Below, piece by piece: positions 8,394-28,164 of a stretch of DNA of 64,000 nt. The position numbers and the translations under genes are program-made. Source of the stretch: Acidimicrobiales bacterium (GTDB lineage Bacteria; Actinomycetota; Acidimicrobiia; Acidimicrobiales; Aldehydirespiratoraceae); contig OY763490.2 in NCBI GenBank assembly GCA_963667505.2, forward strand, positions 3,312,343 to 3,376,342. Direction: 5' to 3'. How positions within the stretch are numbered: the first letter of the stretch is position 1; each line of letters opens with the position of its first letter. The notes below the pieces were generated by a model that saw only the letters and a list, made by a program, of their open reading frames with translations, did not search any database and was not told the origin of the DNA.

Positions 8394-9701
8394 ATGAGAC
8401 GACACTCCTTTCGATGGCTGGTAGCAGCGATCGCGGCCTTCTCGCTGGTCGCGGCGTCCTGCGGCGGCGATGACGACGACTCCACCGTCACCCCTGCGGC
8501 TTCCGAAGAAGAGCCGATGGCCGAGGACGAGCCGATGGCCGAAGAGGAGCCGGCGGCCGAAGAAGAGGCGGCGGCCGAAGAGGCCGAAGAGGAGCCGATG
8601 GCCGAAGAAGAGCCGATGGCCGAGGACGAGCCGATGACCGAGGAAGAGGAAATAACCGAGGCCATCGAGGAGTCCGACATAACCGACATCGCGACCCTCG
8701 ACATGGACACCAACGGCGACGGCAAGGTGATCCTCGGCGTGGCCGCGGCGGGTCCGCGTGACGACGGCGCCTACTACCAGGCCCTGGTGGACGCAGCCGA
8801 GGAGATCTCGGCGGCGCAGGGCTGGGAGCCGCCAGTCGTGGTCGACAACATAGAGCCGGCGGTGGCTGCCACGGAGCTTGAGAACCTCGTTGCTCAGGGT
8901 GTCGACATCATCGCCGTCGGAGCGGGCGAGATCTCTGATCCGCTGCCGGACCTGGTCGAGCAGTATCCCGACGTGTTCTGGTACTGCAATTGCGGCACCG
9001 GCTTCCCCCAGATGGACGGCGTGGCCCTAAGCACAAACGACGGCGCTGAGATCGAGTACGTCGTGGGCGTCGCCGCCGGCCTGATCCTCCAGGAGCGGGG
9101 TGGCGACACTGCGTACATGATCGGCTGCTGCGACCTCGGCTTCGAGGTCGAGACCGAGCTGGCAATGCGCCTGGGCCTCAAGGCGGTGGATCCCAGCTAC
9201 GACGTGGTCTACACGCCGACGGGCAACTTCCCGTTCGACTTCGACAACGTGGCCGGGGCAACCGAGGCGTTCAACGTCGCCCTCGACGCGGGCATGGATT
9301 TCGTCTACCCGTACCTGGGCGGCGCCCACGAGCCTCTGGTTCAGTTGGCCAACGAGAACGGCGTCCCGGTGACGAGCGCGGGCGCATCCGACGTGTGTTC
9401 GCGGACCGACCTGCACTGGGACATGGCCGCGCTGTTCGACGGCGGCGACTTCGCCCGGGCCGTGTTCCCGCTCATCGTGTCGGGGCAGTTCGAGGAGGGC
9501 AGCATCTACAAGTTCGCGGTCGGTCGGGATCCGGAGGTCGGCGCGCTGATCTGCAATCCCACGCCGGAGCAGAAGGAGCTGCTGGACCAGGCCCACGCCG
9601 ACGTCTGGAACGGCTACTGCCTGGCGGAGTTCGACATGATCAGGGCCATCGCCTACGGCGGCGTCGAGATGGAGGCCCCGCTGACCTGCTCGGACGCCTG
9701 A
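8394..9701 (+). CDS. BMP-family (PnrA-like) ABC transporter substrate-binding lipoprotein
   Basis: ATG 8394 is preceded by GGAGGG. Signal peptide plus lipobox LVAASC. Acidic repeat linker followed by a BMP/basic membrane protein-like body. Confidence 0.75.
   Translation: MRRHSFRWLVAAIAAFSLVAASCGGDDDDSTVTPAASEEEPMAEDEPMAEEEPAAEEEAAAEEAEEEPMAEEEPMAEDEPMTEEEEITEAIEESDITDIATLDMDTNGDGKVILGVAAAGPRDDGAYYQALVDAAEEISAAQGWEPPVVVDNIEPAVAATELENLVAQGVDIIAVGAGEISDPLPDLVEQYPDVFWYCNCGTGFPQMDGVALSTNDGAEIEYVVGVAAGLILQERGGDTAYMIGCCDLGFEVETELAMRLGLKAVDPSYDVVYTPTGNFPFDFDNVAGATEAFNVALDAGMDFVYPYLGGAHEPLVQLANENGVPVTSAGASDVCSRTDLHWDMAALFDGGDFARAVFPLIVSGQFEEGSIYKFAVGRDPEVGALICNPTPEQKELLDQAHADVWNGYCLAEFDMIRAIAYGGVEMEAPLTCSDA
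8506..8655 (+). repeat. in-frame tandem acidic repeat (EEPMAE-type) in the lipoprotein linker
   Basis: Repeated gaagagccgatggccgag-type units encode EEEPMAEDEPMAEEEPAAEEEAAAEEAEEEPMAEEEPMAEDEPMTEEEE. Confidence 0.8.
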
Positions 9702-9739
9702 GCGCTCCCTAGGGGCCACCGCACCCGAGAGACCGCCAT

Positions 9740-11356
9740 ATGGCTGATCAGCGGACGGCGGGAACGGAGGTTCCCGCCGTCCGTCTCTCCACGATCTCCA
9801 AGTCGTTCGGGGCCATCGTGGCCTGCGACCGCGTTGACCTGACGCTTCACCGCGGCCGGATCCACGGCATCCTCGGAGAGAACGGCGCGGGCAAGTCCAC
9901 GCTCATGAAGGTGCTTATAGGACTGGTGCTCCCAGACGGCGGCACCATCGAGGTGGACGGCGAGCGCTGCCAGATTCGGGATCCCCACGACGCCGCAGCC
10001 CGCGGGATCGGCATGGTCCACCAGCACTTCAGCCTGGTGGAGCCGCTCACGGTGTGGGAGAACGTGATGCTGGGCGACACCGGCCGGTTCGACGCGGCTG
10101 CCGCCCGCCGGCGAGTCGGCGAGATCAGCGAGCACTACGGCCTGGGAGTCGACCCGGACGCCAAGGTCGAGGAACTCTCGGCCGGGGTCCGCCAGCGCGT
10201 CGAGATCATCAAGTGCCTGCGCCGTGATCCCAGCATCCTGATCTTCGACGAGCCGACCTCCGTGCTGACCCCGGGCGAGTCGGAGCGGCTCTTCGATGTG
10301 CTGCGGCTGGCCGTGCGGGAGGAGAACCGGGCGGTGGCCCTAGTGAGTCACAAGCTCGACGAGATCCTCCACGCCACCGACGAGGTGACCATTATGCGGT
10401 CCGGTGCCGTGGTGAGGCGGATGGAGACCTCGGAGGCGGATGCGCCCATGCTGGCCAGGGCGATGGTCGGTCGGGAGGTCTCGCTCCGGTCGGAAGCGTC
10501 TGCGCTGGGCCTCATCGAGACGGTCGTGGCCGGCGTCGACGACGTCGACGACGCTCGACACCAGACGGCAGGCGACGCCGGGGCCGAATCCGAGGCGCGG
10601 GTGCCCGCGCTCCGCCTCCGAGACGTCGAGGCCCGCGGCCCCGACGGGCGGGTCGCCCTCGACGGTCTGAGCGTCGACGTTTTCGACTCCGAGATCGTGG
10701 GCGTGGCCGGCGTGGAGGGCAACGGCCAGGCCGCACTGACCGACTTGCTGTCGAGCCTGTTGAACGCGGAGGCGGGCACGGTCGAGGTCGACGGCCTCAG
10801 GGTGCAGCCGGGGCGGCCGGGCGCCATGTCCAGAGCGGGCGTGGCCGTCATCCCCGAGGACCGCCACACTTCCGGCTGCGTGCTCGACATGACCGTGGCC
10901 GAGAATCTGTTTTTGGTGGACATCGAGAAGATCGCCACCCGCGGGATCTACGACCCGGCCGTCATGCGACGGGACGCGGCCCGCCTCATCGACGACTTCG
11001 AGATCCAGACGGCTGGTCCGGACGCCCCGTTCTGGTCGCTCTCGGGCGGTAACCAGCAGCGAGTGGTGCTGGCCCGGGAGTTGAGCTACTCGCCCAAGGT
11101 GCTGGTGGCGGCCCAGCCCACCCGGGGGCTTGATGTGGGCGCCATCGAATGGATGACCGACCGTCTCCGCAAGGTGGCCGAGAGCGGCGTCGGGGTGCTG
11201 CTCATCTCGAGCGAACTGGAGGAGATCCTGCAGCTCTCGCACCGCGTCGTCGTGCTGTTCCGCGGTCGCATCATCGGCGAGATGGACAGAGCCGATGTGG
11301 ATCTCGAGGAGCTGGGCCTGCTGTTGGGCGGCGCCAGCGCCGAGGCAGCTGCCTAG
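9740..11356 (+). CDS. ABC transporter ATP-binding protein (duplicated ATPase, sugar/nucleoside type)
   Basis: GENGAGKST Walker A, LSAGVRQRVEI signature, and a second half with LSGGNQQRV. 538 aa. Confidence 0.9.
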   Translation: MADQRTAGTEVPAVRLSTISKSFGAIVACDRVDLTLHRGRIHGILGENGAGKSTLMKVLIGLVLPDGGTIEVDGERCQIRDPHDAAARGIGMVHQHFSLVEPLTVWENVMLGDTGRFDAAAARRRVGEISEHYGLGVDPDAKVEELSAGVRQRVEIIKCLRRDPSILIFDEPTSVLTPGESERLFDVLRLAVREENRAVALVSHKLDEILHATDEVTIMRSGAVVRRMETSEADAPMLARAMVGREVSLRSEASALGLIETVVAGVDDVDDARHQTAGDAGAESEARVPALRLRDVEARGPDGRVALDGLSVDVFDSEIVGVAGVEGNGQAALTDLLSSLLNAEAGTVEVDGLRVQPGRPGAMSRAGVAVIPEDRHTSGCVLDMTVAENLFLVDIEKIATRGIYDPAVMRRDAARLIDDFEIQTAGPDAPFWSLSGGNQQRVVLARELSYSPKVLVAAQPTRGLDVGAIEWMTDRLRKVAESGVGVLLISSELEEILQLSHRVVVLFRGRIIGEMDRADVDLEELGLLLGGASAEAAA

Positions 11357-11377
11357 ACCGGGGGACAGGGGGTCGAC

Positions 11378-12547
11378 ATGAGCGAGCAGCAGACGCCGCC
11401 GCTGGCCGCCGAAGGTCCCGACGTCGGGTCGGACGAGGCTGCCAAGGAGGCGCACGCGCCCTCGCGGCTGCGTGAGGCCGGGGTGGCTGCGGCCATGTAC
11501 CTGGGATGCATCGTCGTGGCCCTGCTCGCATCGGCGATCATCGTGTGGGCGACCGGAGGTTCGTGGCAGGCCGTCTTCTCCGCCCTGCTCGACGGCAGCC
11601 TGCGGGCCCCCGGACGGTGGGGAGAGACCATCGGCATCGCCATCCCGTTGGTGGTGGTGGCCCTGGGAACCGCCATCAACGGCCGGGCCGGAGTTGTCAA
11701 CATCGGCCAGGAGGGCCAGCTGATGATCGGCACGGCCTTCGCCACCTACGTGGGCGTGCGCCTGGGCGGTCCCGGACCGGTGGTAGTGATCTGCCTGCTC
11801 ATCGTGGGGGCCCTCGCGGGAGCAATGTGGGCGGGCATCGCCAGCTGGCTCCTCTATTGGCGGCGGGTGCCGGAGGTGCTCACCACGCTGCTGCTGATAA
11901 CGGTGGCCTCCCAGATCGGCGGCTACGCGTTGAAGGTCGACTGGCTGCTGCTGGCTCCGTTCCGCGAGGACCGCTCGGTTCGCAACCAAGTGAGCGACCA
12001 GCTCGCCAAGGACACCCGGCTGCCCCGCATCGACATCTGGGGCAACGATTTCCCGATCAGCTCCATCGCGGTGGTGCTGATGGCGGTGATCGTGTTCCTG
12101 CTGTTCAAGCGCAGCGTGTGGGGCTTCCGCATGGGCATGCTGGGCCGCAACGCCCGCACGGCGCAGCGGGCCGGCGTTTCGACGGTCAAGTACGGCACCA
12201 CCGCCATGCTCATCTCGGGCGCGTGCGCGGGCCTGGCCGGGGCCCTGATGCTCTCCGGCGGCGACTTCGGGAACTACCGGTTCACGCCCGGCTTCGCCAA
12301 CAACATCGGATGGGAAGGGCTGCTGGTGGCGCTGGTCGCCCGCTCGCACCCCGTCGGCATCGTGGTGGTGGCCTTCAGCTTCGCCGGACTGCGGGCCGGC
12401 TCCGGTTTCCTGGCCGCCACCGGGGTCGAGCGCGAGATCTCCCAAGTGGTCCTCGCCCTACTGGTGCTGGCGCTGCTGGTGCCACCGGCCATCCTGTTCA
12501 TCCGCGAGCGCCGCCGCGCGCTGTCGGCCACCAGAGACAGGACCTGA
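11378..12547 (+). CDS. ABC transporter permease (BPD_transp_2 type)
   Basis: Multi-TM hydrophobic protein directly downstream of the ATPase. ATG 11378. Confidence 0.8.
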   Translation: MSEQQTPPLAAEGPDVGSDEAAKEAHAPSRLREAGVAAAMYLGCIVVALLASAIIVWATGGSWQAVFSALLDGSLRAPGRWGETIGIAIPLVVVALGTAINGRAGVVNIGQEGQLMIGTAFATYVGVRLGGPGPVVVICLLIVGALAGAMWAGIASWLLYWRRVPEVLTTLLLITVASQIGGYALKVDWLLLAPFREDRSVRNQVSDQLAKDTRLPRIDIWGNDFPISSIAVVLMAVIVFLLFKRSVWGFRMGMLGRNARTAQRAGVSTVKYGTTAMLISGACAGLAGALMLSGGDFGNYRFTPGFANNIGWEGLLVALVARSHPVGIVVVAFSFAGLRAGSGFLAATGVEREISQVVLALLVLALLVPPAILFIRERRRALSATRDRT

Positions 12548-12550
12548 CCG

Positions 12551-13486
12551 ATGGGAGGCTTCTTCTCCGCCATAGCCGACGTGGTCGCCAACGACGTGAC
12601 CTATTCGGGCGCCATGCGCTTCGCCGCGCTGCTCGCATTCGCCGCCATCGGCGAGACCATCGCCGAGAAGGCCGGCACCCTCAACATCTCCCTGGAGGGG
12701 ATGATTCTGGGGGGCGCCTTCGCCGGGGCGCTGGGCATGCACCTCACGGAGTCGGTGACGGTCGGGCTGATCTTCGCCACCGTCGTCGGGGTCGTGGTGG
12801 CGTCGGTGCAGGCCAACATGAGCCATCGGCTCACCGCCAACCAGTTCGTGGTCGGGCTGGCTCTCAACACCCTGGTGCTGGGCATCGCCAGCTTCCTGAA
12901 CACCAGCATCCAGCCGGTGTCGAGGGCCGCGCACCGGTTCGAGATCCCCGGCGTGTCGGAGATCCCCCTGGTGGGCGACGCCTTCTTCAATCAGCCTTGG
13001 CCCCTGTACTTGGTGTACCCGATGATCCCGGCCGCGTGGTGGCTGCTGTACCGCACCCGGTGGGGCCTCGAGGTGCGGGCGGTGGGCGAGAACCCGCAGT
13101 CGGCCGACGTGTCGGGCATCGACGTCAACAAGCGCCGACGCCAGTCCATCTACATCGCGGGGTTCACGTCCGGACTGGGCGGCGGCTATCTGGTGCTGGG
13201 CCAGATCGGGCGGTTCGAGGACGCCATCGTCGGCGGCCAGGGGTTCATCGCCATCGCCGCGGTGATCTTCGGCGGATGGACCATGCGGGGCGTCATCGGC
13301 GGGTGTCTCCTGTTCGGCACGGTCAACTCGTTCCGGCTGACTCTGCCAACCGTGGGTCACGAGCTCAATTCCGAGCTCCTGTCGGCCGCGCCGTTCGTGG
13401 TGACCATCGTCACCGTTACCTTCTTCGCCCACCGCACCCGCGAGCCTCGGGCACTGGCCCAGCCCTTCGTACGCGGCCTCACCTAA
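12551..13486 (+). CDS. ABC transporter permease (second membrane subunit)
   Basis: Multi-TM protein of 311 aa, 3 nt after the previous permease. Confidence 0.8.
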   Translation: MGGFFSAIADVVANDVTYSGAMRFAALLAFAAIGETIAEKAGTLNISLEGMILGGAFAGALGMHLTESVTVGLIFATVVGVVVASVQANMSHRLTANQFVVGLALNTLVLGIASFLNTSIQPVSRAAHRFEIPGVSEIPLVGDAFFNQPWPLYLVYPMIPAAWWLLYRTRWGLEVRAVGENPQSADVSGIDVNKRRRQSIYIAGFTSGLGGGYLVLGQIGRFEDAIVGGQGFIAIAAVIFGGWTMRGVIGGCLLFGTVNSFRLTLPTVGHELNSELLSAAPFVVTIVTVTFFAHRTREPRALAQPFVRGLT

Positions 13487-16338: not shown

Positions 16339-16620
16339 TCAAGACGGGGGGTCTTCGGGTTCGGGGAGGTCGGGTTCGGGTGGGTCGGGGAAGCCGATTC
16401 GCAGGTAGCCCTCGATGCGGGCCAGGCGCTGGCCGTTGTGGGACACCTCGGTGCACAGCTGGCCGATGGTCCTGCTGAACTCCGTGCGCAGTTCGGTGTT
16501 GGCCTGGTTGAAATCGTCGCGCAGTTTGTCGGTGCTGCGCTGTTGGTGCCAGATGATCGTCAGTACTGCCAGCGCCACGGTGGCCAGCTGAGCGAGGGTG
16601 ACGGCTGCTTCGGCGCTCAT
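16339..16620 (-). CDS. small membrane-anchored coiled-coil protein, paralogue 1 of 3
   Basis: N-terminal TM (LAQLATVALAVLTIIW), coiled-coil, and the C-terminal NGQRLARIEGYL motif shared with 18503..18841 and 18828..19133. Confidence 0.55.
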   Translation of the reverse strand: MSAEAAVTLAQLATVALAVLTIIWHQQRSTDKLRDDFNQANTELRTEFSRTIGQLCTEVSHNGQRLARIEGYLRIGFPDPPEPDLPEPEDPPS

Positions 16621-16697
16621 GGGATCACCCTACCTCCATTTGGACTGACAATAACTCAATATTATGAAAATTGCTCTAACTTGCGCGGTTGGAGCGG

Positions 16698-17702
16698 TTA
16701 GCTGGTGGCGATGTGGGCTACTTCGGTCAGGAGCTCGCGGTTGGCGGCCGGGCCGGGGGAGATGATGTTGACGAAGAAGGCGTGGAGGTCGTGGGCGCTG
16801 ATGAGGTGCTGGAGTTGGCTGCGGCACTGCTCGGGGGTGCCGGCGATCTGGTACTCCGACACCAGTTCGTCGGTCACGAGGCGGCCGACGGCCTCGGGGC
16901 CGCCCTGCTCGAAAGCGTGCTTGAGGCCGGCGATCTCCGTTTCGCTCAGGCCGAGGTTCTTGAGGATCCGGGGCGGGCTGTCCATGATGGCGTAGCCGTA
17001 GAGGTGCTTGGCCTCCTCGATCATCTCGGGCTTGTAGGCCAGCCGGTCGAGGTAGACCCGGGTGAGCGGAGCACTCGCTCCGGCGGTTCCGGCTCTCGCT
17101 CCGGCCGCGGCCTTGCGGGCCTCGTTGGCGATCTCGAAGGCGTCGGCTAGGTCGGACTTGACCATCAGCACCAGACCGTCGGCGCGGGCGCCGGCCAGAG
17201 CGAGCATCCTTTCGCCCCGGGCCGCGACCCAGACCGGGATCGAGTGCGTGCCGGTGGTTAGCTGGGCGCTGTCGAGTGTGAGTCGCCGACCCTGCCAGGT
17301 CACCGGCTCGCCCTGCCACAGCAGCCTGAGGGTCTCGATGGTGTCGGCCATCATCGCCAGCGGAGCGGCCCGCTCCAGGCCGATCGGGTGCAGCACCATG
17401 GTGCCGCCTGCAACCAGCGTGACGAAGGCCCGGCCTCCGCTCATCTCGTCGATGGTGGCGATCGCGGCCGCGGTGGCCGCCGGGTGACGGGTGTAGGGGT
17501 TGGTGACCGGGCCCAGCCGGATCGTGCTGGTGGTCTCGGCTGCGGCGCCCAGCACCGCGTACACGTCGAGCATCAGGCCCTCGTCGGCCACCATGCAGTA
17601 CGAGTATCCGAGCTCCTCGGCCAGCACGATGATGTCGATCAGCTCGGCCGAGCCCATAGTCGGCACGATCTGCAACCCCAGCGCGATGCCGTCGGCGCTC
17701 AT
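16698..17702 (-). CDS. LLM-class (luciferase-like) oxidoreductase resembling F420-dependent methylene-H4MPT reductase (Mer)
   Basis: The block LGPVTNPYTRHPAATAAAIATIDEMSGGRA closely follows the Mer/LLM-F420 pattern. 334 aa. Confidence 0.75.
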   Translation of the reverse strand: MSADGIALGLQIVPTMGSAELIDIIVLAEELGYSYCMVADEGLMLDVYAVLGAAAETTSTIRLGPVTNPYTRHPAATAAAIATIDEMSGGRAFVTLVAGGTMVLHPIGLERAAPLAMMADTIETLRLLWQGEPVTWQGRRLTLDSAQLTTGTHSIPVWVAARGERMLALAGARADGLVLMVKSDLADAFEIANEARKAAAGARAGTAGASAPLTRVYLDRLAYKPEMIEEAKHLYGYAIMDSPPRILKNLGLSETEIAGLKHAFEQGGPEAVGRLVTDELVSEYQIAGTPEQCRSQLQHLISAHDLHAFFVNIISPGPAANRELLTEVAHIATS

Positions 17703-17775
17703 GGCTGCGCTTCTGCGATGTTTCGGATGGCGTTGCTCATGGTGCCTCGGCCTGCCGGTTCGCGCATGGGACGGA

Positions 17776-18495
17776 TCATGGCTGCTCCTGCCAGGGGTCG
17801 TGGGGCGGTCGGATCACGACCGGGCCGATGTCGATGCGGCGGTCGGATCCGAGCAGGTCGGCCACCAGCTCGCCCACCCCGGCTGCGGGCATCATGCGGG
17901 CCCGCACCGACTCGGGAGCCTTGCCGTCCCACAGCTCGGTGTCGATCTGGGCGGGACACAGCGTGATCACCCTGATGCCGCAGTCTCGTCCCTCCAGCCG
18001 CAGCACCTCGCCCAGCGCGTTGAGGCCGCCCTTGGAGGCGGCGTAGGCGGCGTTCCCCTCGAACGCCTGCACCGCGGCGATGCTGCTGATCAGGACGATC
18101 TGACCCCCGGCCGCGGCCAGTGCCTCCCAAGCGGCCCGAGTCAGGGCCATGACCGCGCCCAGGTTGACGTCGAGGACGCGCTGCCAATGACCGGGGGTCG
18201 CCTCCGGCACGGCCGCCTTGTCGAACACGCCCGCGCTGTGGACGATCACATCAATGCGGCCCTGGGCTGCCAGCGTCTCGGTGATCGCCCGCTCAGGCTC
18301 GCCGGGTTCGGTCAGGTCGGCCGCCAAAGTCGTGGCCGTCGGGCCCAGTTCCTCGGCCACGGCCCGCAGCCGGTCCTCGCGTCGCCCCACCAGCACGCTG
18401 CGGACGCCCCGAGCCGACAGCGCAGCCGCGCAAGCCAAGCCGATGCCCGAGCCGCCGCCCGTCACGACCGCGACCGGAGCAGGCCGAGACGTCAT
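17776..18495 (-). CDS. short-chain dehydrogenase/reductase
   Basis: VVTGGGSGIG Rossmann motif and YAASKGG catalytic motif. Start at ATG 18495 (alternative 18516). Confidence 0.85.
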   Translation of the reverse strand: MTSRPAPVAVVTGGGSGIGLACAAALSARGVRSVLVGRREDRLRAVAEELGPTATTLAADLTEPGEPERAITETLAAQGRIDVIVHSAGVFDKAAVPEATPGHWQRVLDVNLGAVMALTRAAWEALAAAGGQIVLISSIAAVQAFEGNAAYAASKGGLNALGEVLRLEGRDCGIRVITLCPAQIDTELWDGKAPESVRARMMPAAGVGELVADLLGSDRRIDIGPVVIRPPHDPWQEQP

Positions 18496-19092
18496 CTGGG
18501 GATCACTCTGCGGCATCGTCCGGGACGCCGATCCCCAGGAAGCCCTCGATGCGGGCCAGCCGCTGCCCGTTCTCCGACACCTCGACCCGCAAGTCGCCGA
18601 TCTCGGTGCCCAGCTTGGTCTCAAGCTGGCTGATCTCGGCTCTCAGTTCGGTGCGCAGGCTGTCCGTGGTCTGCTGCTGATTCCAGATGATGGCCATCAC
18701 TCCCAGGACGACGGCGAGCAGTTGTGCGACAGGGATGAGCTGCGGCCAGCGCGGCGCCACGGTGCCTGCATCCGCCATGGCGGCTGCTTGGCGCACGACT
18801 GCGGGGTCGGCGACGGTCATCTGGGGATCACTCTGCGGCATCGTCCGGGGCGCCGATCCCGAGGAAGCCCTCGATGCGGGCCAGCCGCTGCCCGTTGTCC
18901 GATACCTCGTTGCGCAGTTCGCTGATCTCGGCTCTCAGTTCGGTGCGGAGGTTGTCGGTGGTCTGTTGCTGATTCCAGACGATGGCGAACACTCCGAGCA
19001 CGACGGCGAGCAGTTGTGCAACAGGGATGAGCTGCGGCCAGCGCGGCGCCGCGGCTGCTTCGGGCACCGCTGCGGGGTCGGCGGTGGTCGCC
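18491..19092 (-). repeat. tandem ~325-bp duplication carrying the small coiled-coil gene
   Basis: GTCATCTGGGGATCACTCTGCGGCATCGTCCGGG recurs at 18491 and 18816. The units are alignable throughout with one 33-bp indel. Confidence 0.85.
18503..18841 (-). CDS. small membrane-anchored coiled-coil protein, paralogue 2
   Basis: Has WPQLIPVAQLLAVVLGVMAIIWNQQQTTD and ENGQRLARIEGFLGIG. Alternative start at 18820. Confidence 0.55.
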   Translation of the reverse strand: MPQSDPQMTVADPAVVRQAAAMADAGTVAPRWPQLIPVAQLLAVVLGVMAIIWNQQQTTDSLRTELRAEISQLETKLGTEIGDLRVEVSENGQRLARIEGFLGIGVPDDAAE

Positions 19093-19133
19093 GAGCCTTC
19101 GCCCGGAACGTTGAACGCCTCTGACGCGGCCAT
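18828..19133 (-). CDS. small membrane-anchored coiled-coil protein, paralogue 3
   Basis: Start taken at ATG 19133 (MAASEAF). Near-identical TM and C-terminal motif to paralogue 2. Confidence 0.55.
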   Translation of the reverse strand: MAASEAFNVPGEGSATTADPAAVPEAAAAPRWPQLIPVAQLLAVVLGVFAIVWNQQQTTDNLRTELRAEISELRNEVSDNGQRLARIEGFLGIGAPDDAAE

Positions 19134-19212
19134 GCCGAAACCATAGCCTCTCAGGTGTTCAATGCAACACAATATCTTTAGATACATCTCCGAACATGGA
19201 AATCGAAGGTAC

Positions 19213-20178
19213 TCACGGCTGGCCGAAGAAGGAGGCGGCTAGCACGTCGTAGTTGATGCGGCCGGCGCTGTAGGTGCGTCCGCTGGCCAGGTTGGTGAGA
19301 TGGATCTCGGCCGGGGAGTGCAGCTCGATGGGGATCTCGTAGAAGTCCCGACCGGCGTCCTCGTAGATCTCGATGAACGGGCGCCCGTAGGCAGTGCTGG
19401 CCGCGGACACCACCCGGTCGACGATCTCGGCGCACTGGGCGTCGTCGGCCTCGACGGTCACGTTGGCGATCCCGCCGTAGAGCAGGCTGTCGTTGATGCG
19501 GCCCATCGAGACCAGGTCGTCGTCCACCAGCGGCGGCACCACCCCCAGCCCGTAGGCGTAGCGCAGGCCCCGCAGGTCCATGCCCTCCTCGGCCAGGCGG
19601 TGGATGGACTGCTCCACGATGCGGGCCGCCACCTGCACCGCGGTGACCAGGCTGCGGTTGGGGGCGAACAGCACGTACAGGTCGGCAGGGCCGACCCGGC
19701 AGGCCGAGGCGATCATGTCGGCCATCTCCACCGGCACCGGATCGGACGTCTGAATGGCCACCACCGACTCGTGGTGGTCGTCGCGGTAGTCGGTCCACTC
19801 GAAGTAGTGGTCGAGGCTGTCGCGGTTCAAGGCCCGACCCGGCCCGGCCAGGATGGCGGCGTGCTCGGTGCCGGGAGCCTGCAGGCGCCATCCGGCGATC
19901 TGCGAGGCCACGCAGGCCTCGATGGGATGGTCGATCATCACCCGCACCGCGGTGAGCATCCGCCCGGCCAGCTCGAACGGCTCGTAGCTCACGATCCCGA
20001 GCCCGCCCAGGCTGGCCAGCGTGTAGAGCTGAGCGGCCCGCCAGCCGCCCTTGGCCTCCAGGCCCATGTCGATGACGGTGGTGCCGTTGTCGAGCCGGTC
20101 CACGGCCACGCCCAGCGCGTCGGCCTCGTCCAGGATGAGCCGCACCGTCCTCATCGCCTCACGGTTGACGCTGATCAT
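19213..20178 (-). CDS. mch: methenyltetrahydromethanopterin cyclohydrolase homologue
   Basis: 321 aa. N-terminal SVNREA...LDNGTTVIDMG, then MGRINDSLLYGG, YGRPFIEIYE..DFYEIP, and the tail LASGRTYSAGRINYDVLAASF match the Mch pattern as I recall it. Confidence 0.7.
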   Translation of the reverse strand: MISVNREAMRTVRLILDEADALGVAVDRLDNGTTVIDMGLEAKGGWRAAQLYTLASLGGLGIVSYEPFELAGRMLTAVRVMIDHPIEACVASQIAGWRLQAPGTEHAAILAGPGRALNRDSLDHYFEWTDYRDDHHESVVAIQTSDPVPVEMADMIASACRVGPADLYVLFAPNRSLVTAVQVAARIVEQSIHRLAEEGMDLRGLRYAYGLGVVPPLVDDDLVSMGRINDSLLYGGIANVTVEADDAQCAEIVDRVVSAASTAYGRPFIEIYEDAGRDFYEIPIELHSPAEIHLTNLASGRTYSAGRINYDVLAASFFGQP

Positions 20179-20211
20179 GTCTGCCTCCTGACTCGCCTGC
20201 CCGGAGCTCCC

Positions 20212-20988
20212 TCAGGCGGGGGTGGACTCGCGGGCGCCGAGGGCCGCGTCCACCGGGATGATCGCGCCGTTGAGGTAGCTGGCCTCGGGCGAGGCCGCGA
20301 ACAGGATGGCCGCGGTGATCTCCTCGGGACGGCCGAAGCGGCCCTCGGGGATGTGGCGCTGCACCGCGGCCTGCACGTCGGGGTCGCGCATCCCGGCCAG
20401 CAGCGCCTCGGTGGCGATCAGCCCGGGGGCCACCGCGTTGACCCGCACGCCCTTGGGGCCGAGCTCCAGGGCCATCGCCCGGGTCAGGCCCTCGACTGCG
20501 CCCTTGGAGGCGATGTAGGCGCAGCGGTTGGCCACGCCTAGCCGGGCCAGGATCGAGCTGAGGTGGACGATGGCGCCCTGGCCCCGCTCGGCCATCCCGG
20601 CGGCCACCAACTGGCTCAGCTGGAACAGCCCTCTCACGTTGGCCAGCCATACGGTGTCGAAGGCCTCCAGAGAGAGGTCGAACATCGACGAGCGGTCGAT
20701 CAGCGCCGCGTTGTTGACCAGGATCGACACCGGCCCCAGCGCGGCCTCGACCTCCCTTGCGAGTCGGTCGACGTCGTCCTCGCGGCCGATGTCGGCTTGG
20801 AAGACCTCGGCCTCGCCTCCCGCATCGATGATGGCCTGCCGAGTGGAGATAGCGCCGTCGGCGTCGTTGCGGTAGTTGACCGCGACCAGCGCCCCCTCGG
20901 CTGCGAAGGCCTTGGCGGTGGCCGCGCCGATACCGCGCGAGGAGCCGGTGACCAGCACGGTGCCGCCGTCGAAGCGGTCAGGCCTCAT
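20212..20988 (-). CDS. short-chain dehydrogenase/reductase (FabG-like)
   Basis: VLVTGSSRGIG, NNAA, and YIASKGAVEGLTR motifs. Confidence 0.85.
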   Translation of the reverse strand: MRPDRFDGGTVLVTGSSRGIGAATAKAFAAEGALVAVNYRNDADGAISTRQAIIDAGGEAEVFQADIGREDDVDRLAREVEAALGPVSILVNNAALIDRSSMFDLSLEAFDTVWLANVRGLFQLSQLVAAGMAERGQGAIVHLSSILARLGVANRCAYIASKGAVEGLTRAMALELGPKGVRVNAVAPGLIATEALLAGMRDPDVQAAVQRHIPEGRFGRPEEITAAILFAASPEASYLNGAIIPVDAALGARESTPA

Positions 20989-21075
20989 GTTCGGCCTCCT
21001 CGCGCGGGGATGTGGTGACGTGCTCGCGGGCGTTGTCGCCGGACTCGAGGTGGGGCCTCATGTCCGGCCTCCTCG
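20981..21075. repeat. 22-bp duplication of the SDR ribosome-binding/start region (GGCCTCATGTYCGGCCTCCTCG) 73 bp apart
   Basis: Copy 1 at 20981-21002 contains the SDR ATG. Copy 2 at 21054-21075 contains the lipoyl-gene stop. Confidence 0.8.
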
Positions 21076-21333
21076 GATGGCGGCGGCCTCGGCCTCGTCG
21101 TCGGCGATCACGGCCAGCACCGTGCCCACGTCCACGGTCTCGTCCTCCTCCACCAAGATCCGGGCCACCACCCCGGCGCAGGGTGCCTCCAGTTCGTTCT
21201 CGACCTTCTCGGTCTCGACCTCGGCGATCATCTCGCCCTCCACCACATGGTCGCCCTCGTCCACGTACCAGGCCACCACGGTGCCGTCCTCCATGGTCAG
21301 CCCCCACTTGGGCAGGATCACGTCTGTGCTCAT
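21058..21333 (-). CDS. stand-alone lipoyl-attachment domain protein (E2 lipoyl domain only)
   Basis: 91 aa. ILPKWGLTMEDGTV..., and AEVETEKVENELEAP with the candidate lipoyl-Lys43. No peripheral-subunit-binding domain and no catalytic acyltransferase domain. Confidence 0.75.
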   Translation of the reverse strand: MSTDVILPKWGLTMEDGTVVAWYVDEGDHVVEGEMIAEVETEKVENELEAPCAGVVARILVEEDETVDVGTVLAVIADDEAEAAAIRGGRT

Positions 21334-21372
21334 CGGCGACTCCTCATCTTTGGGCCGTGGCGGTCCGCCGGG

Positions 21373-22502
21373 TCAGTACTCGGCGGCCTTGGCGATGGCC
21401 GCGGCTATGTCGTCGGTGTCGGGGAGGACTACTTCCTCTAAGGGCACCGAGAACGGAATGGGGGTGTCCAGGCCGTCCACCCGCACCACCGGGCCCCGCA
21501 GGTCGGCGAAGCACTCCTCGCTGATGCGGGCGCTGAGCTCGGCGCCGAGCCCGCCGATGCGGGGCGCCTCGTTGGCCACCACCGTCCGGCCGGTCTTGAC
21601 GGCCGAGGCCAGAACCGTCTCAGCGTCGTAGGGCCTGATGGTACGCAGGTCCACCACCTCGACGGACACGCCGTCGGCTGCGGCCCGCTCGGCCGCCTCC
21701 AGCGCCATCGGCACCATGCGCATGGCCGCCACCACCGTCACGTCGGTGCCCTCCCGGGCCACCGCGGCCTGCCCCAGCGGGACGGTGTAGTAGTCGGGGG
21801 GCACTTCGGCCCGGCTGCGGTACAGGGCCTTGTGTTCCAGGAAGAGCACCGGGTCGTCGCTGTCGATCGACGCCAACAGCAGGCCCTTGGCGTCCACCGG
21901 GTTGGACGGCGCCACGATCACGATGCCAGGCACGTTGAGGAACCAGCCCTCCACGCTTTGGGAGTGGTGCGGGCCGCCGCCGAACCCGCCCCCGCAGGCG
22001 GTGCGGATCACCAGCGGCGCGGTGAACTGGCCGTCGAACATGTAGTGGAGCTTGGCCACGTTGTTGACCACCTGGTCGTAGCACTCGGCGATGAAGTCGG
22101 CGAACATGATCTCGGCCACCGGGCGCATGCCGACCATGGCCGCGCCGGCGCAGGTGCCGATGATGGCCGCCTCCGACAGCGGCGTGTCGCGCACTCGCTC
22201 CGGCCCGTACTTGGCCAGCAGCCCCTTGGTGACGCCGAAGTCGCCGCCCATCTCGGCGATGTCCTCGCCGATGAGGAACATCTCGGCGTGCTTGTCCATG
22301 GCCAGGTCCAGGGCGTTGTTGAGGGCCTGGGTGAAGCTGGCCTTGCGCACCCGGTCGCGGCCCTTGCGCGGCTTGCGCCGGGCCCGGCGCTCCCGCGGCG
22401 CGCCCTCAGCGCCGGCAGGCGGGGCCTCGGCGGTTGCGGCCTGCGCGTCGGCGGAAGGGGTCTCGGCTGCTTCGGCGGTTGCGGTCGTGGTCTCGGCGGC
22501 GG

Positions 22503-22506
<4 letters not shown>
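21373..22506 (-). CDS. 2-oxo acid / acetoin dehydrogenase E1 component beta subunit, with an N-terminal Ala/Thr/Glu-then-Arg/Lys extension
   Basis: Start at ATG 22506 (ATGA overlap with the E1 alpha stop). The core from FTQALNNALD..FLIGEDI onward matches the transketolase-like pyrimidine-binding and C-terminal domains. Confidence 0.8.
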
Positions 22507-23480
<974 letters not shown>

Positions 23481-23548
23481 GACGGCTCCTCCTGTCTGGT
23501 CAGCTACAGGGACTGATCTGAGACGCTATCGAGCGGATACCCGCGCAT

Positions 23549-23600
23549 CGAAATTGGCGACGAAACCGCCCTCCCAGGGCGCAAATCGCCACCAATTTCG
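23549..23600. promoter_or_regulatory. imperfect palindrome (CGAAATTGG ... CCAATTTCG arms) between the flavin reductase stop and the E1 alpha start
   Basis: Read directly: 9-bp perfect arms at 23549-23557 and 23592-23600, with further partial complementarity inside. Confidence 0.25.
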
Positions 23601-23614
23601 TGCTGGTGGGGCTG

Positions 23615-24301
23615 CTAGCCGCCGTCAACCGCGGCGTCGGACGAGTCGGAGTACTCGTCCCACGGGATGCGGGGCAGGAAATAGGCGCCCTCGTCCACGG
23701 TGCGCAGGAAGGTCCGCAAGCCGAGCCGGGCGATGGCGCCGAGGCGCAGCGGGTCGATGCGGCCCCGCTCGTCGCATATCGACGAGTCGTAGGCCACCCA
23801 CACCACCTCGCCGATCACCAGGTGGACCTCGCCGAAGACCCGGCCCGGCGTTCCGAGGTCCACCACCTGGTGGACCACACACTCCAGGCGGGCCAGCGCC
23901 TCGCCGACGGCGGGGGAGCTGACCTTGGTAGCCGGCACCGGCGTCCATCCGGCCAGCTCGAACTCGTCGACCTCGCTGGGGGCCTCCATGGCCACCGTCT
24001 CGATGTCGTCGCGGAACGCCTCGCCGGTGACGTTGATCACGAAGTCGCCCGACGCCATGGCGTTGAGGTAGGTGTGCTTCAGGCTGCCGTCCTCCAGCAG
24101 CCCCATGGTGACCCCCACCAGCATCGGGTCGCCCGTGATGGGCAGGTAATAGCTCATCGGGGCGACGTTGTTCACGCCGTCGGGGCTGCGGGTGGACACC
24201 ATGGCGATGGGACGGGGCACGACCAGCTGCGAGAGCATGAACTGGCGGTCCATGGGCGGGTTCACAGCCGGGTCGAAAGTGACGGTGCGCTCGGGATCCA
24301 T
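23615..24301 (-). CDS. flavin reductase-like (FMN-binding split-barrel) protein
   Basis: PRPIAMVSTRSPDGVNNVAPMSYY pattern. Start at ATG 24301 (track alternative 24358). Confidence 0.75.
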   Translation of the reverse strand: MDPERTVTFDPAVNPPMDRQFMLSQLVVPRPIAMVSTRSPDGVNNVAPMSYYLPITGDPMLVGVTMGLLEDGSLKHTYLNAMASGDFVINVTGEAFRDDIETVAMEAPSEVDEFELAGWTPVPATKVSSPAVGEALARLECVVHQVVDLGTPGRVFGEVHLVIGEVVWVAYDSSICDERGRIDPLRLGAIARLGLRTFLRTVDEGAYFLPRIPWDEYSDSSDAAVDGG

Positions 24302-24395
24302 CGGTTCGGCGTCCTTCTCGGCCCTCTCTCCAGGCCGTCTCGGCGTCCGGTGTCTCAAGTGCCGTGCGGTTTGCGGGGTGCTGCCGCGGTCGGCT

Positions 24396-25565
24396 TCAGG
24401 CCCCGTTCGTAGGCCAATGACGGCGGTAGCGCCTCACCAGCCAGCGGTTGAACTGCACCAGGGTCTCCTCCTGCCACGAGTAGCGGCCCCGGGGGGCCAA
24501 GTGCGAGTTGAGGCCCTTCTGGGTCATGGTGTCGGCGTAGATGTCCTGCACGTTGAAGTTGTTGACCCCGGCCTCGGCTGCCTCGAACAGGTACTCGAAG
24601 AGCGGGTCCTCCAGCGCGGCGGGCTCCAGGCAGTAGCCGATGTGGATGGTGATGTGGCCGGTGTCCTGGGGGCTGATTATGAAGTAGGCCACCTCGTCGG
24701 GGACGATGGCCAATGCCAGCGTGGGCGGGATCAGCACGAAGCCGCCCCGCTTGCGCTGCTCGTCGGTGAGGTTGGAGAACACCGGCAGGATGCAGCGCTG
24801 GGTGGGGTTGAACGAGCTGTCGATGTCGGTGAAGTGCTGGATCCGGCCGATGGCGCCGTCGGTGTCGTCCCAGTCGAGGAAGTCGTTCATGTGGCTCGGT
24901 GCGAACGTCTGCAATGGTCCGTGCAGCCTGCTGGCGTGGTACGGGTCGTTGAAGTTCTCCATCATGACCTTCCAGTTCCACGGAAGATCCGGGATCGTCT
25001 TGCCTTCCAGGGTGGTGGTGGACTCCAGCCCGTAGTTGGCGAGCATGTCGTCGATCTTGGTCATGGTGGGGCCGAACGGGGGAGCGTCATGGTCGAAGTT
25101 GGCCATGATGAACCCGTGCCAGATCTCCACCTTGAGTTGGGGCAGCGGATGCTCGGACCGGTCGAAGCCGACGGCCCGGTCCATGGCCGGCGTGCCCAGC
25201 AGGGTGCCGTCGAGGCCGTAGCTCCAGTGGTGGTAGGGGCAGGTGAACCGACGGCAGTTGCCCGAACCCTCGGCGATCACCATGCCCCGATGGCGGCACA
25301 CCGCCGACATAACCCGCAGCTCGCCGTCAGAGTCCCGGGCCGCGATCAGGGGCTCGCCCGCGATGGCGATGCAGCGGAAGTCGCCCGGCTCGGGCAGTTG
25401 GTCGGTCCGGCCCACGCAGAGCCACTCCCGCTGGAAGATGGCCCGCCGCTCGAACTCGTAGAACTCCGGCGACGTGTAGAGCTCGGGCGGTAGCAGCCTG
25501 GCCTCGTCCACCGGCCCGATCGATTCCTCGAAGCTGGCCAGGAGTTCGTCGGTCAGCACCGTCAT
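24396..25565 (-). CDS. Rieske (2Fe-2S) non-heme iron oxygenase alpha subunit
   Basis: CRHRGMVIAEGSGNCRRFTCPYHHW Rieske motif. Start at ATG 25565 (track alternative 25604). Confidence 0.85.
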   Translation of the reverse strand: MTVLTDELLASFEESIGPVDEARLLPPELYTSPEFYEFERRAIFQREWLCVGRTDQLPEPGDFRCIAIAGEPLIAARDSDGELRVMSAVCRHRGMVIAEGSGNCRRFTCPYHHWSYGLDGTLLGTPAMDRAVGFDRSEHPLPQLKVEIWHGFIMANFDHDAPPFGPTMTKIDDMLANYGLESTTTLEGKTIPDLPWNWKVMMENFNDPYHASRLHGPLQTFAPSHMNDFLDWDDTDGAIGRIQHFTDIDSSFNPTQRCILPVFSNLTDEQRKRGGFVLIPPTLALAIVPDEVAYFIISPQDTGHITIHIGYCLEPAALEDPLFEYLFEAAEAGVNNFNVQDIYADTMTQKGLNSHLAPRGRYSWQEETLVQFNRWLVRRYRRHWPTNGA

Positions 25566-25604
25566 TGCTGGTGTTCTCCCTAGGTCTGCTCGCGTGCGGG
25601 CCAA

Positions 25605-26433: not shown

Positions 26434-28164
26434 CTAGATGGTCGTCAGGGCTTGCTGAAGGGCGGTGCCGATCTTTAGGCATAGGGCGTCGGCGTGGGGT
26501 GGGGCGACGATCTGGATGGCGGCCGGGCGGGTCTCGTCGAGTGCGGTCGGCATCACGAGGGCGGGCTGGCCGGTGACGTTGAAGGGCAGGAGGGTGCGGG
26601 CCACCTTGTCGAGCCAGAGACGGTCGCCGTCGTCGAAGAAGGTGGCCGGGTCGGGTGCCGAGGTCGGCGTGGCTGCGGTGACGATCACGTCGGCCTGCTC
26701 GAAGGCCGCGTCGAGGTCCTGCTGGACGAGGCGGCGGACCCGCAAAGCCTTCAGGTAGTCCGCGGCGCCGGTGCGGGCGCCCGCGGCCAGCCGGCACGCC
26801 GCCGACGGCGTGAACTCGCCGATGCGGCCCAGGTTGCTCGCATGGTGGGCGGCGAACTCCACGACGGTGATCACCCAGGCGACGATGCCGGCCAGCTCCG
26901 CATGGGGGATCGACACCGTGATGACCTCGGCGCCTAGGCGCTCCAGCTCGCCGACGGCCGCCTCGACGGCTGCGGTCATGGCAGGACTGCACCCGTCAGC
27001 CAGCCAGCCGTCCACCACGCCCACTCGCAGTCCGTGCAGGCGGACCAGGCCATCGGGCGCCGGGGCGCGAGACTGCTTGGCACGGGCCGATCCCGCTCTG
27101 CTGGCCGCAGTCCCGGCGGCGCGGTAGTCGGGGACCGGTCGACTCGACGAATAGGGATCGGCGTCCGAGCGGCCCGCGATCACGCCCAGCACCAGGGCCA
27201 GGTCCTCGACGGTGCGAGCCATGGGCCCCACATGGTCGAGCGTCCAGGACACGCCGAAGACGCCGTCGCGGGGCACCCGGCCGAACGTTGGCTTGATCCC
27301 GCTCACGCCGCAGTACGACGACGGCACCCGGATCGACCCGCCGGTGTCGGTTCCCAGCGCCACCGGGAACAGCCCGGCGGCCAGGCCCGCAGCCGACCCC
27401 GACGAGCTTCCGCCCGCCCACCGGCCCGGCGCGGCCGGATTGACCACGCCGTCGCCGGTCTCGTCGCCGAAGGCGAACTCCGGGGTGGTGGTCTTGGCCA
27501 GGATCACCGCGCCCGCCTCCCGCAGCCGGGCCACCACGGCGGCGTCGGCGGACGGGACCCGGCCCGCGTGCAGCGGCGATCCGGCCTCGGTGGCCAGCCC
27601 CGCCGTGTCGATGATGTCCTTGATGCCGACGGGCACGCCCTCCAGCGGCCCCGCGTCACCGGCGCTCCACCGCCGGGCCGACCGGGCCGCCTGTTCTCGG
27701 GCCGTGCCATCGAGGCTCACAATCGCGCCGATCTCGCCGTCGAGTTCGTCGATCCGAGCCAGGCATGCATCCACCGCTTCGACCGGATCGAACCTCCCGG
27801 CCCGGTACCCGTCCAGCAGGGCCGCGGCGCTGAGAGCGGTGAGGTCGTCGTCGGCCCGCGCCGTCCTGCTCCCTGGCGAGAGATGGGACTCCTCGCTGGC
27901 CCCGACTGCGACCTCTGGTGCTCTACCGTCCGCGATCCAGCGGTAGCCAGCGGCCGGTCCGACGGTCTCGGGGAACGGCTCGTCCAGCGAGCGCAGCGCG
28001 GCCAGCTTGTTGCCTAGCGTGGCCTGCGCGGCCGCCGCGGCGGCCAGAATCCCTTCAGGGATCGCGACCGCTCCGTCGGTCACTGTCCAGTCGCTGGCCA
28101 CGGCCGAAACGTAACCGAGCCGCACTCGATGCGCCGCAAGGCGGCACTCCGCCGAGCGCGCCAC
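26434..28164 (-). CDS. amidase (amidase-signature family) with a possible ~100-aa N-terminal extension
   Basis: GGSSSGSAAGLAAG signature and GIKPTFGRV. The start is uncertain. The canonical amidase core begins near LTALSAAALLDGYRAG. Confidence 0.8.
   Translation of the reverse strand: MARSAECRLAAHRVRLGYVSAVASDWTVTDGAVAIPEGILAAAAAAQATLGNKLAALRSLDEPFPETVGPAAGYRWIADGRAPEVAVGASEESHLSPGSRTARADDDLTALSAAALLDGYRAGRFDPVEAVDACLARIDELDGEIGAIVSLDGTAREQAARSARRWSAGDAGPLEGVPVGIKDIIDTAGLATEAGSPLHAGRVPSADAAVVARLREAGAVILAKTTTPEFAFGDETGDGVVNPAAPGRWAGGSSSGSAAGLAAGLFPVALGTDTGGSIRVPSSYCGVSGIKPTFGRVPRDGVFGVSWTLDHVGPMARTVEDLALVLGVIAGRSDADPYSSSRPVPDYRAAGTAASRAGSARAKQSRAPAPDGLVRLHGLRVGVVDGWLADGCSPAMTAAVEAAVGELERLGAEVITVSIPHAELAGIVAWVITVVEFAAHHASNLGRIGEFTPSAACRLAAGARTGAADYLKALRVRRLVQQDLDAAFEQADVIVTAATPTSAPDPATFFDDGDRLWLDKVARTLLPFNVTGQPALVMPTALDETRPAAIQIVAPPHADALCLKIGTALQQALTTI

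Follow-up and report, generated by a model that had tools for sequence, protein, structure and literature searches.

A conserved gene cassette joining an Mch-fold cyclohydrolase to E1 and lipoyl genes in sponge-associated Acidimicrobiia, and its purine-type genomic company

The gene mch serves as a marker of methanopterin-linked one-carbon metabolism. A homologue lies in the window analysed here, a 64-kb stretch (64,000 nucleotides; contig OY763490.2, positions 3,312,343 to 3,376,342) from a sponge-associated member of the Acidimicrobiia placed by its named relatives in the genus Ca. Aldehydirespirator (UBA11606), family Aldehydirespiratoraceae (hereafter the sponge family). It belongs to an array of minus-strand genes together with the E1 and lipoyl components of a thiamine pyrophosphate (TPP)-dependent enzyme, two SDR oxidoreductases, a Mer-like luciferase-family (LLM) oxidoreductase and a Rieske oxygenase. 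Parts of the array resemble several described systems. Mch itself (EC 3.5.4.27; PDB 1QLM, 4GVQ-4GVS, 4FIO) shares with the host protein full-length homology, the Arg-x-x-Glu helix and the other family motifs, and the chemistry in common is likely to be the addition of water to a five-membered cyclic amidinium. The host protein falls in a separate clade, however, and its neighbours are E1 and lipoyl genes rather than one-carbon genes. Haloarchaea, like the host, make no methanopterin and carry homologues of Mch and Mer, which have been proposed to act on tetrahydrofolate (THF) (Pfeiffer and Dyall-Smith 2021, PMC8305020). The proposal for haloarchaea is about housekeeping folate one-carbon metabolism, whereas here the genes are accessory, cluster with a TPP/lipoyl enzyme and occur in a genome that has FolD.

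The E1/lipoyl part invites comparison with acetoin dehydrogenase (AcoA/AcoB/AcoC, with or without AcoL, plus butanediol dehydrogenase) and with the 2-oxoacid complexes. Common to all are a heterotetramer-type E1 with a TPP motif, a lipoyl domain with a conserved lysine and an adjacent SDR. The locus differs in that the host lipoyl domain is a separate 91-aa protein and the E2 catalytic gene is absent, that in relatives the E2 catalytic domain is a gene of its own, and that an Mch-fold gene is always alongside. The reductive uric acid/2,8-dioxopurine pathway is relevant by virtue of its hallmark genes, XdhD, YgfK or UacX, SsnA, HyuA, YgeW, YgeY and YgeX, as given in the available portions of two accounts (PMC12507026; bioRxiv 10.1101/2025.04.24.650524). 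Relatives of the array sit among genes for an XdhA-like molybdenum (Mo) hydroxylase and for SsnA-like, YgeY, ornithine carbamoyltransferase (OTCase)-like, YgeX, XdhC and YqeC proteins. By contrast Mch, SDR and E1/lipoyl genes, of which those portions make no mention, have no counterpart in the pathway as published there.

The core of the array is a real and conserved cassette, for which we found no description in the literature searched. Synteny was scored with the window's proteins at 80 genome loci, 64 of which extend at least 4.5 kb upstream of Mch. E1alpha lies upstream of Mch on the same strand in 62 of these 64 loci, from Acidimicrobiia and Chloroflexota, at 70-90% identity, and the first SDR (SDR1) stands directly upstream of Mch in 62/64. 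The order E1alpha, E1beta, lipoyl, (E2 catalytic), SDR, Mch is kept across loci down to 54% Mch identity. Homologues of the host Mch at 64-80% identity occur both among other Acidimicrobiia (Ilumatobacteraceae and further families) and among Chloroflexota (Caldilineaceae, Anaerolineales). Seven annotated contigs share the order E1alpha, E1beta, lipoyl (~88 aa), E2 catalytic (a gene of its own, 230 aa), SDR, Mch, the next gene being luciferase-like in six and an SDR in the seventh. Since core order and strand are conserved in other phyla, the arrangement is not due to chance. Mch is present in 35 of the 36 species genomes of the genus (86-94% identity), and absent from all 24 other sampled families of the order; a sample of 400 other genomes from across the phylum contained only two with it.

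Around this core the array has gained and lost genes by lineage. The E2 catalytic gene is present in 12 of 13 other Acidimicrobiia loci and in 15 of 21 Chloroflexota loci, and in none of 30 from the sponge family; in the host a 69-nt spacer stands in its place, and elsewhere in the host genome only three matches to the relatives' E2 catalytic protein are found among four full-length housekeeping E2s. An LLM gene (at least 45% identity) lies downstream of Mch in all 31 of 31 loci from the sponge family, in 11 of 16 from other Acidimicrobiia and in 2 of 16 from Chloroflexota. Among 30 sponge-family loci the Rieske gene is present in 21, the flavin reductase in 23 (two of them without the Rieske gene), the upstream amidase in 21, the second SDR (SDR2) in 25 and the small coiled-coil proteins in 16; none of these was found at loci outside the family. 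Some Chloroflexota loci keep E1 without the lipoyl and E2 genes. The preliminary description of this DNA had proposed that the gene combination forms a unit, had taken the array as one set and had not recognised it as a described pathway. That there is a unit is borne out by the conserved neighbourhood, but the set divides into a conserved core and additions (Rieske, flavin reductase, SDR2, small proteins) found in only part of the sponge family, which has also lost the E2 catalytic gene. As for novelty, no matching pathway description came to light: the literature searched held no paper linking Mch to Acidimicrobiia, to acetoin-type dehydrogenases or to purine breakdown, the main text of a preprint on urate RNA-seq in E. 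bolteae mentions no cyclohydrolase or E1 genes, and the paper naming the host family does not discuss these genes.

The link between Mch and E1 recurs in distant anaerobe contigs. One from the Halanaerobiales encodes SDR, Mch, E1alpha, E1beta, a full E2, lipoate ligase (LplA), a GntR regulator, E3, a second Mch, an SDR and an amidohydrolase. A second contig combines an ECF importer and an amidohydrolase with a regulator of the helix-turn-helix (HTH)-cupin type, Mch, a pyridoxal phosphate enzyme, another amidohydrolase and E2. In a third, amidohydrolases, tungsten aldehyde oxidoreductases, a DHO_dh-Fer4 reductase and an HTH-cupin regulator accompany Mch, with a sarcosine-oxidase-like set, E1alpha and E1beta; here the DHO_dh-Fer4 reductase occupies the position that the LLM gene has in phyla using coenzyme F420.

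All the cassette members belong to one branch of the Mch family. The host protein, present in single copy, scores 278 bits on TIGR03120 (cut-off 229) and 339 bits on PF02289 (cut-off 25), and aligns with Mch of M. kandleri (1QLM) at 244 bits. Its residues R186 and E189 match the R-V-V-E of 1QLM in alignment, do not vary among 12 cassette homologues, and correspond to Arg183/Glu186, the catalytic pair of the A. fulgidus enzyme. An exhaustive search gave 1073 family representatives, and a tree of 122 full-length representatives, rooted on the Methanosphaera Mch, resolves two clades. Clade A (32 representatives, support 1.0) holds the host Mch, all cassette members, the three anaerobe contigs above and further distant sequences, while the Methanosphaera protein lies in the other clade. 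Clade A is marked by R-x-x-E-Q, with E-Q for E-T beside the catalytic Glu, and by G-R-I-N-D in place of GRTND; relative to two solved archaeal sequences, AQKAGW is moreover replaced by SQIAGW and FAPA by HSPA in the host protein. Judged by its sequence, the host Mch is thus a distinct branch of the family which retains the catalytic Arg/Glu pair.

A tetrahydromethanopterin (H4MPT) one-carbon pathway was considered for the host and rejected. Neither beta-RFAP synthase (TIGR00144) nor the formyltransferase FTR was found in any of the genus's 39 genomes, which include many single-contig assemblies, and Fae was not found in the host genome; Mtd (PF09176) was not searched for. The cassette is not part of an H4MPT pathway. 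Nor does the folate route need a substitute, because the host has FolD and a MetF-like gene (a weak MetF-type match). By analogy with glycine cleavage, it had been suggested earlier that a cleaved fragment might be funnelled into a pterin-bound one-carbon pool. This idea is not supported, given the missing methanopterin markers, a folate one-carbon route already covered by FolD, the separate clade of the Mch and the purine-type flanks of the relatives described below.

The LLM protein resembles Mer, and is probably F420-dependent. Its best NCBIfam models are those of Mer, at 181.5 bits (cut-off 276) and 169.6 bits (cut-off 348.7), with the next LLM family at 80 bits, and the best six of seven PDB matches are Mer structures. 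CofD/FbiA and CofE/FbiB lie side by side in the host genome (C1:987392-989058), which is 96% complete; no CofG/CofH (FO synthase) was found in it above cut-off, the best scores of 33 and 25 bits being far below. Use of F420 is therefore plausible only if FO is imported or its gene falls in an assembly gap, and the symbiont may rely on imported FO.

The company kept by the cassette in relatives is of a purine-catabolic type. Chloroflexota flanks are very regular, with an HTH-cupin regulator, a TRZ/ATZ-type amidohydrolase, an FAD subunit and a fused Mo hydroxylase that is XdhA-like and scores 688 bits against the XdhA model; around the cassette there are also a Bmp ABC importer, a YgeY-family hydrolase (372 bits, cut-off 321), an OTCase-like carbamoyltransferase, further SDR and LLM genes and an SsnA-like hydrolase. 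A locus in the Ilumatobacteraceae adds diaminopropionate ammonia-lyase (YgeX; 320 bits, cut-off 276), XdhC and YqeC. Importers at the relatives' loci are of the Bmp or ECF type, and neither YgfK nor HyuA was found in these loci. Chloroflexota SsnA clusters have been described, in the available portion of one study, as lacking YgfK and UacX and as carrying instead a putative F420-dependent luciferase-family enzyme, proposed to be a yanthine reductase (Li et al. 2025, PMC12507026).

In the host window none of SsnA, a ring reductase, HyuA, YgeW/YgeY or YgeX was found. A block 435 kb from the cassette (C1:3766-3775 kb), beside an rve-type transposase, encodes an FAD subunit, a fused XdhA-like Mo hydroxylase, an SsnA-like amidohydrolase, XdhC, a 268-aa protein and an LLM. 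Its fused Mo hydroxylase and SsnA-like hydrolase are respectively 57% and 54% identical to their Chloroflexota counterparts. In an Ilumatobacteraceae locus the genes for the SsnA-like protein, XdhC and the LLM directly adjoin the cassette, as those for the Mo hydroxylase and FAD subunit do in Chloroflexota, and the pathway thus seems to be split in the host genome. At further places the host genome also has pairs of LLM with amidohydrolase and of LLM with DeoC, of the kind seen next to the cassette in other Acidimicrobiia.

On balance we favour the view that the array is an operon built around an old, widespread and biochemically unstudied cassette for the breakdown of an imported purine-type N-heterocycle, rather than for methanopterin or folate one-carbon metabolism. 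In its favour are the conservation of the core, the separate Mch branch, the missing H4MPT markers and the conserved company, which comprises importers, regulators, hydroxylases and ring hydrolases as well as a ring reductase. In the host itself the Bmp importer, Mo hydroxylase, amidase and hydantoinase B of the window, the distant partner block and the presence of FbiA and FbiB point the same way. Pteridines and flavins are less likely substrates. The assignment is meant at the level of pathway type, and drawn as it is from sequence the single steps are hypotheses. A hydroxylase would first prepare the ring: an XdhA-like Mo enzyme in Chloroflexota, and in the host the Rieske oxygenase, the Mo hydroxylases encoded in the window and in the distant block, or both types. 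The LLM, with F420H2, would then reduce and dearomatise the ring (a DHO_dh-type enzyme doing so in the anaerobe), a role suggested because the available portion of Li et al. 2025 proposes the same for the luciferase-family enzyme of Chloroflexota SsnA clusters. Amidohydrolases of the SsnA/TRZ type would open the six-membered ring. The Mch-like enzyme could next add water to the five-membered cyclic amidine (imidazoline) that is left, at its N-CH=N carbon, to give an N-formyl diamine, since an N-CH=N ring bridging a vicinal diamine is the motif that Mch attacks in methenyl-H4MPT. In E. coli the hydantoinase HyuA does the equivalent job on an 8-oxo ring. SDR1 would oxidise the carbon skeleton and E1, with TPP, would cleave or decarboxylate it onto the lipoyl carrier. 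For this last reaction an acetoin-type C-C cleavage releasing an aldehyde is at least as likely as 2-oxoacid decarboxylation, because Chloroflexota without lipoyl and E2 genes keep E1, because aldehyde oxidoreductases accompany the cassette in anaerobe loci and because AcoC is the best match of the lipoyl protein.

A narrower version of the purine-type reading is tentative, and we hold it to be possible rather than probable. In this version LLM, SDR and clade-A Mch would carry out methyl, methylene, methenyl and formyl chemistry on the imidazoline ring of the substrate itself, without a pterin carrier, and the skeleton would pass to a lipoate-dependent TPP enzyme.

Several observations weigh against breakdown of a purine-type heterocycle. 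YgeX and YgeY were not found in the host genome, and the sponge-family flanks differ from those of Chloroflexota, so that the substrate may differ between lineages. With 42-48% identity to methanogen enzymes and a score above the TIGR03120 equivalog cut-off, the host Mch has a sequence that would be compatible with a pterin-type substrate. The lack of CofG/CofH leaves the F420 supply uncertain, and the neighbouring flavin reductase, whose nearest solved structure is NtaB, could mean that the LLM works with reduced flavin. The step assigned to SDR1 and E1 is the weakest and least secure, and we know of no precedent for ring opening linked to a TPP/lipoyl enzyme. A further point comes from the Halanaerobiales contig (positions 2085-8231), in which genes for a corrinoid protein, for methyltransferases of the URO-D and Pterin_bind types and for a radical SAM protein stand immediately upstream of SDR-Mch-E1; no other locus seen hints at a link to folate methyl transfer.

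That last observation belongs with a folate- or other pterin-linked one-carbon module, which we regard as an unlikely alternative. Mch would act as methenyl-THF cyclohydrolase, SDR1 as methylene-THF dehydrogenase and the LLM as F420-dependent methylene-THF reductase, with E1/lipoyl delivering the one-carbon unit, for example the formyl group of glyoxylate. Oxidative purine catabolism yields glyoxylate. In keeping with such a module, Mch has all the family motifs and is as close to the archaeal enzymes as true orthologues are to one another, Mer is the nearest family of the LLM, and the order SDR-Mch-LLM mirrors the methylene, methenyl and methyl steps; the case argued for THF in haloarchaea (PMC8305020) points the same way. 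FolD and the MetF-like gene already cover these steps, however, and clade A stands apart with changed residues beside the catalytic Glu. The cassette is patchy, as the phylum-wide count of Mch shows, and travels with importers, regulators and amidohydrolases, as is typical of catabolism, and no formimino- or formyl-transferase was seen at any examined cassette locus. We also know of no precedent for an E2 that transfers to a pterin. Somewhat less likely again, though chemically attractive, is that an N-methyl group of a methylated purine or a vicinal diamine is oxidised without a carrier. Here the LLM would turn N-CH3 into an iminium, which closes to an aminal ring, SDR1 would oxidise that ring to an amidinium and Mch would hydrolyse the amidinium to N-formyl, the demethylated skeleton (e.g. 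diaminopropionate converted to pyruvate) passing to E1/E2. The trio does fit the series from methyl through methylene and methenyl to formyl, the Rieske protein best matches the N-demethylase-type oxygenases GbcA and CntA, and diaminopropionate ammonia-lyase lies in the flanks of some relatives. Yet chemical reasoning is what the scheme is built from, many Chloroflexota and anaerobe loci keep SDR-Mch-E1 without an LLM, and that ammonia-lyase, YgeX, is the one missing from the host genome.

Two more conventional explanations fare worse. An ordinary acetoin/2,3-butanediol (or pyruvate) dehydrogenase operon lying beside unrelated genes would account for the AcoC match of the lipoyl protein, for the resemblance of the E1 subunits to pyruvate and acetoin dehydrogenases and for BudC among the SDR matches, but is improbable: Mch accompanies E1 in all but two of the 64 loci with enough upstream sequence and across phyla, as unrelated neighbours would not, the E2 catalytic gene is missing from the host and lipoyl and E2 genes from some Chloroflexota, and the E1 scores are all at or below family cut-offs. 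Proximity to a 'sup' polyketide synthase (PKS) and a phosphopantetheinyl transferase, finally, is the sole reason for viewing the array as a tailoring or precursor-supply sub-cluster, which seems hardly credible given that importers and hydrolases dominate the conserved company of the cassette and that the amidase, a PIN-domain gene and others lie between it and the PKS. A PKS tailoring role was rejected, as many cassette-bearing genomes have no PKS in the flanks.

Clade-A Mch proteins pass the curated equivalog threshold and are named "methenyltetrahydromethanopterin cyclohydrolase" in many metagenome-assembled genomes of Acidimicrobiia and Chloroflexota, a naming that would wrongly imply methylotrophy or methanogen-type one-carbon cycling in marine, sponge and wastewater communities. 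If the purine-type reading is correct, the cassette would fill gaps (no HyuA, no YgfK) in the route of purine breakdown that was described for F420-using phyla in 2025, and two folds thought to be tied to methanopterin would have a new job, coupled in an unprecedented way to a lipoate enzyme. Should the carrier-free version also hold, it would amount to a previously unknown and largely oxygen-independent way of taking apart the five-membered ring of purines or their methylated forms. Its range would extend across Actinomycetota, Chloroflexota and anaerobic Firmicutes-type bacteria, and sponge symbionts would have added a Rieske oxygenase for compounds from the sponge host. That nearly every species of the genus has kept Mch suggests that a nitrogen compound supplied by the sponge host or the community is an important nutrient. 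What the host window itself contributes is the sponge-symbiont form of the cassette, which has lost the E2 catalytic gene and gained the Rieske oxygenase, flavin reductase, SDR2 and small membrane proteins, together with the distant partner block and the genus-wide absence of methanopterin genes (0/39 for the markers).

The features of the array and of two neighbouring loci are listed in Table 1; domain calls are from Pfam and NCBIfam and structural neighbours from PDB matches. In this window of ~70% GC, third-position GC marks out a clean minus-strand gene series at 16.3-25.6 kb. Twelve genes with their domains and short spacers had been read there in the preliminary description, along with a palindrome in the one longer gap; Pfam, NCBIfam and the start-codon candidates agree with the former, and the palindrome proves to be an imperfect 15-nt inverted repeat. 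With the most plausible starts the spacers run from -14 to 77 nt, the 134-nt gap being the sole exception.

Table 1. Features of the array at 16339-25604 and of neighbouring loci in the 64-kb window
Feature	Coordinates	Strand	Basis or remark
Rieske non-haem iron oxygenase alpha subunit	24396..25604	-	Pfam Rieske + Ring_hydroxyl_A
Flavin-reductase-like split-barrel protein	23615..24358	-	Pfam Flavin_Reduct
134-nt spacer, ahead of conserved core	23481..23614	-	holds imperfect 15-nt inverted repeat
E1 alpha (TPP-binding), acetoin/pyruvate-dehydrogenase-type; core	22503..23480	-	Pfam E1_dh, 197 bits
E1 beta; core	21373..22506	-	Pfam Transket_pyr + Transketolase_C
Stand-alone lipoyl domain protein, 91 aa; core	21058..21333	-	Pfam Biotin_lipoyl
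SDR1, classical SDR oxidoreductase; core	20212..20988	-	Pfam adh_short_C2, 204 bits
Mch-fold cyclohydrolase, clade A; core	19213..20178	-	PF02289 full length, E 3e-101
Small membrane-anchored coiled-coil protein, paralogue 1; accessory	18828..19187	-	weak sub-threshold DUF2570 match
Small membrane-anchored coiled-coil protein, paralogue 2 (tandem duplicate); accessory	18503..18841	-	direct repeats, 88-91% identity, spaced 292-325 nt
SDR2; lineage-specific insertion between Mch and LLM	17776..~18516	-	Pfam adh_short from residue 51 of longest ORF
Mer-like luciferase-family (LLM) oxidoreductase; core in Acidimicrobiia	16698..17702	-	Pfam Bac_luciferase
Small membrane-anchored coiled-coil protein, paralogue 3; accessory	16339..16620	-	66-71% identical to repeat copies
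Bmp/PnrA-type ABC importer (binding protein, ATPase, two permeases)	8295..13486	+	Pfam Bmp (weak), ABC_tran, BPD_transp_2 x2
Amidase-signature enzyme (AtzE-like), upstream of array	26434..28164	-	Pfam Amidase; NCBIfam AtzE family 292 bits, below cut-off

The Rieske open reading frame (ORF) extends to a TTG at 25604, with a likely ATG start at 25565 (389 aa); its best matches, GbcA in NCBIfam and CntA in the PDB, are both far below cut-off. The flavin reductase, which matches component B of nitrilotriacetate (NTA) monooxygenase (NtaB) at 85.6 bits, could serve either the LLM or the Rieske enzyme. The 134-nt spacer shows no sigma-70-like or terminator-like site, and its inverted repeat was not found in relatives by pattern or exact-arm search, most equivalent spacers having no exact repeat. 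A scan for promoters and terminators returned no promoter-like site and one terminator-like site, inside E1alpha, fewer than in shuffled sequences, and is uninformative in DNA of 70% GC. A promoter or operator role for the spacer or repeat would be a guess, and an operator is not claimed.

E1 alpha shows the GDG...NN motif for TPP in its translation and scores 256 bits on PDH_E1_alph_y (cut-off 394), while E1 beta scores 322 bits on PRK09212 (cut-off 321). The ATG of E1 beta at 22506 overlaps the E1 alpha stop; read from there, the protein would have an N-terminal extension of ~45 aa compared with relatives of 329-343 aa. The AcoC match of the lipoyl protein is to the N-terminus of that acetoin dehydrogenase E2, and its lipoyl lysine, K43, is invariant across 7 homologues, within E-T-E-K-V in the host and E-T-D-K-I in Chloroflexota. 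The array has no E3 and no Pyr_redox domain was found among the window genes scanned, which were part of the ORFs; the Halanaerobiales relative encodes E3 and LplA within its operon. SDR1 has only generic SDR matches in NCBIfam and the PDB, and SDR2 could start at 18516, 18495 or 18465. The three small proteins are paralogues, each with one transmembrane helix and a coiled coil, and two of them stem from a recent tandem duplication of ~292-325 bp whose copies are near-identical. Their variable presence across species of the genus suggests rapid turnover.

The flank on one side of the array is catabolic in character. Pfam identifies hydantoinase B, an acyl-CoA-type ligase, a 2-oxoglutarate oxygenase, an esterase, a Mo hydroxylase with Fe-S and FAD parts and another Rieske oxygenase, as well as the Bmp/PnrA-type importer. 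A Bmp-type transporter also flanks the cassette in Chloroflexota and in 15 of the 30 sponge-family loci, and may supply the substrate of the pathway. On the other side lie the AtzE-like amidase, which may share a pathway with the array in the host lineage, a retropepsin-like ORF, a PIN-domain gene, the phosphopantetheinyl transferase and the "sup"-type PKS (28.9-48 kb). The retropepsin-like aspartyl protease ORF (119 aa; 25718-26077, minus strand), between the amidase and the Rieske gene, is odd company for a catabolic operon; it scores above the Pfam cut-off for PF13650 and just above that for PF13975. The PIN-domain gene and a small ORF overlapping its start (28185-28577 and 28574-28816, both minus strand) have the look of a VapBC-type toxin-antitoxin pair, and stand between the catabolic array and the PKS region.

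The window as a whole holds four Rieske oxygenase alpha genes, at 6956-8725 (-), 24396-25565 (-), 48336-49526 (+) and 50764-52371 (+). A beta subunit (50366-51025) lies near just one of them, and the set suggests a large oxygenase repertoire for small nitrogenous or aromatic compounds. Downstream of the PKS, genes at 52368-53078 (+), 54952-56484 (+), 56523-57626 (-) and 57560-59131 (+) include DUF1989, a family III CoA-transferase, a formamidase/acetamidase-family gene and an amidohydrolase with an imidazolonepropionase-type composite domain. The genes at 52368-59131 represent further amide or urea-type catabolism.

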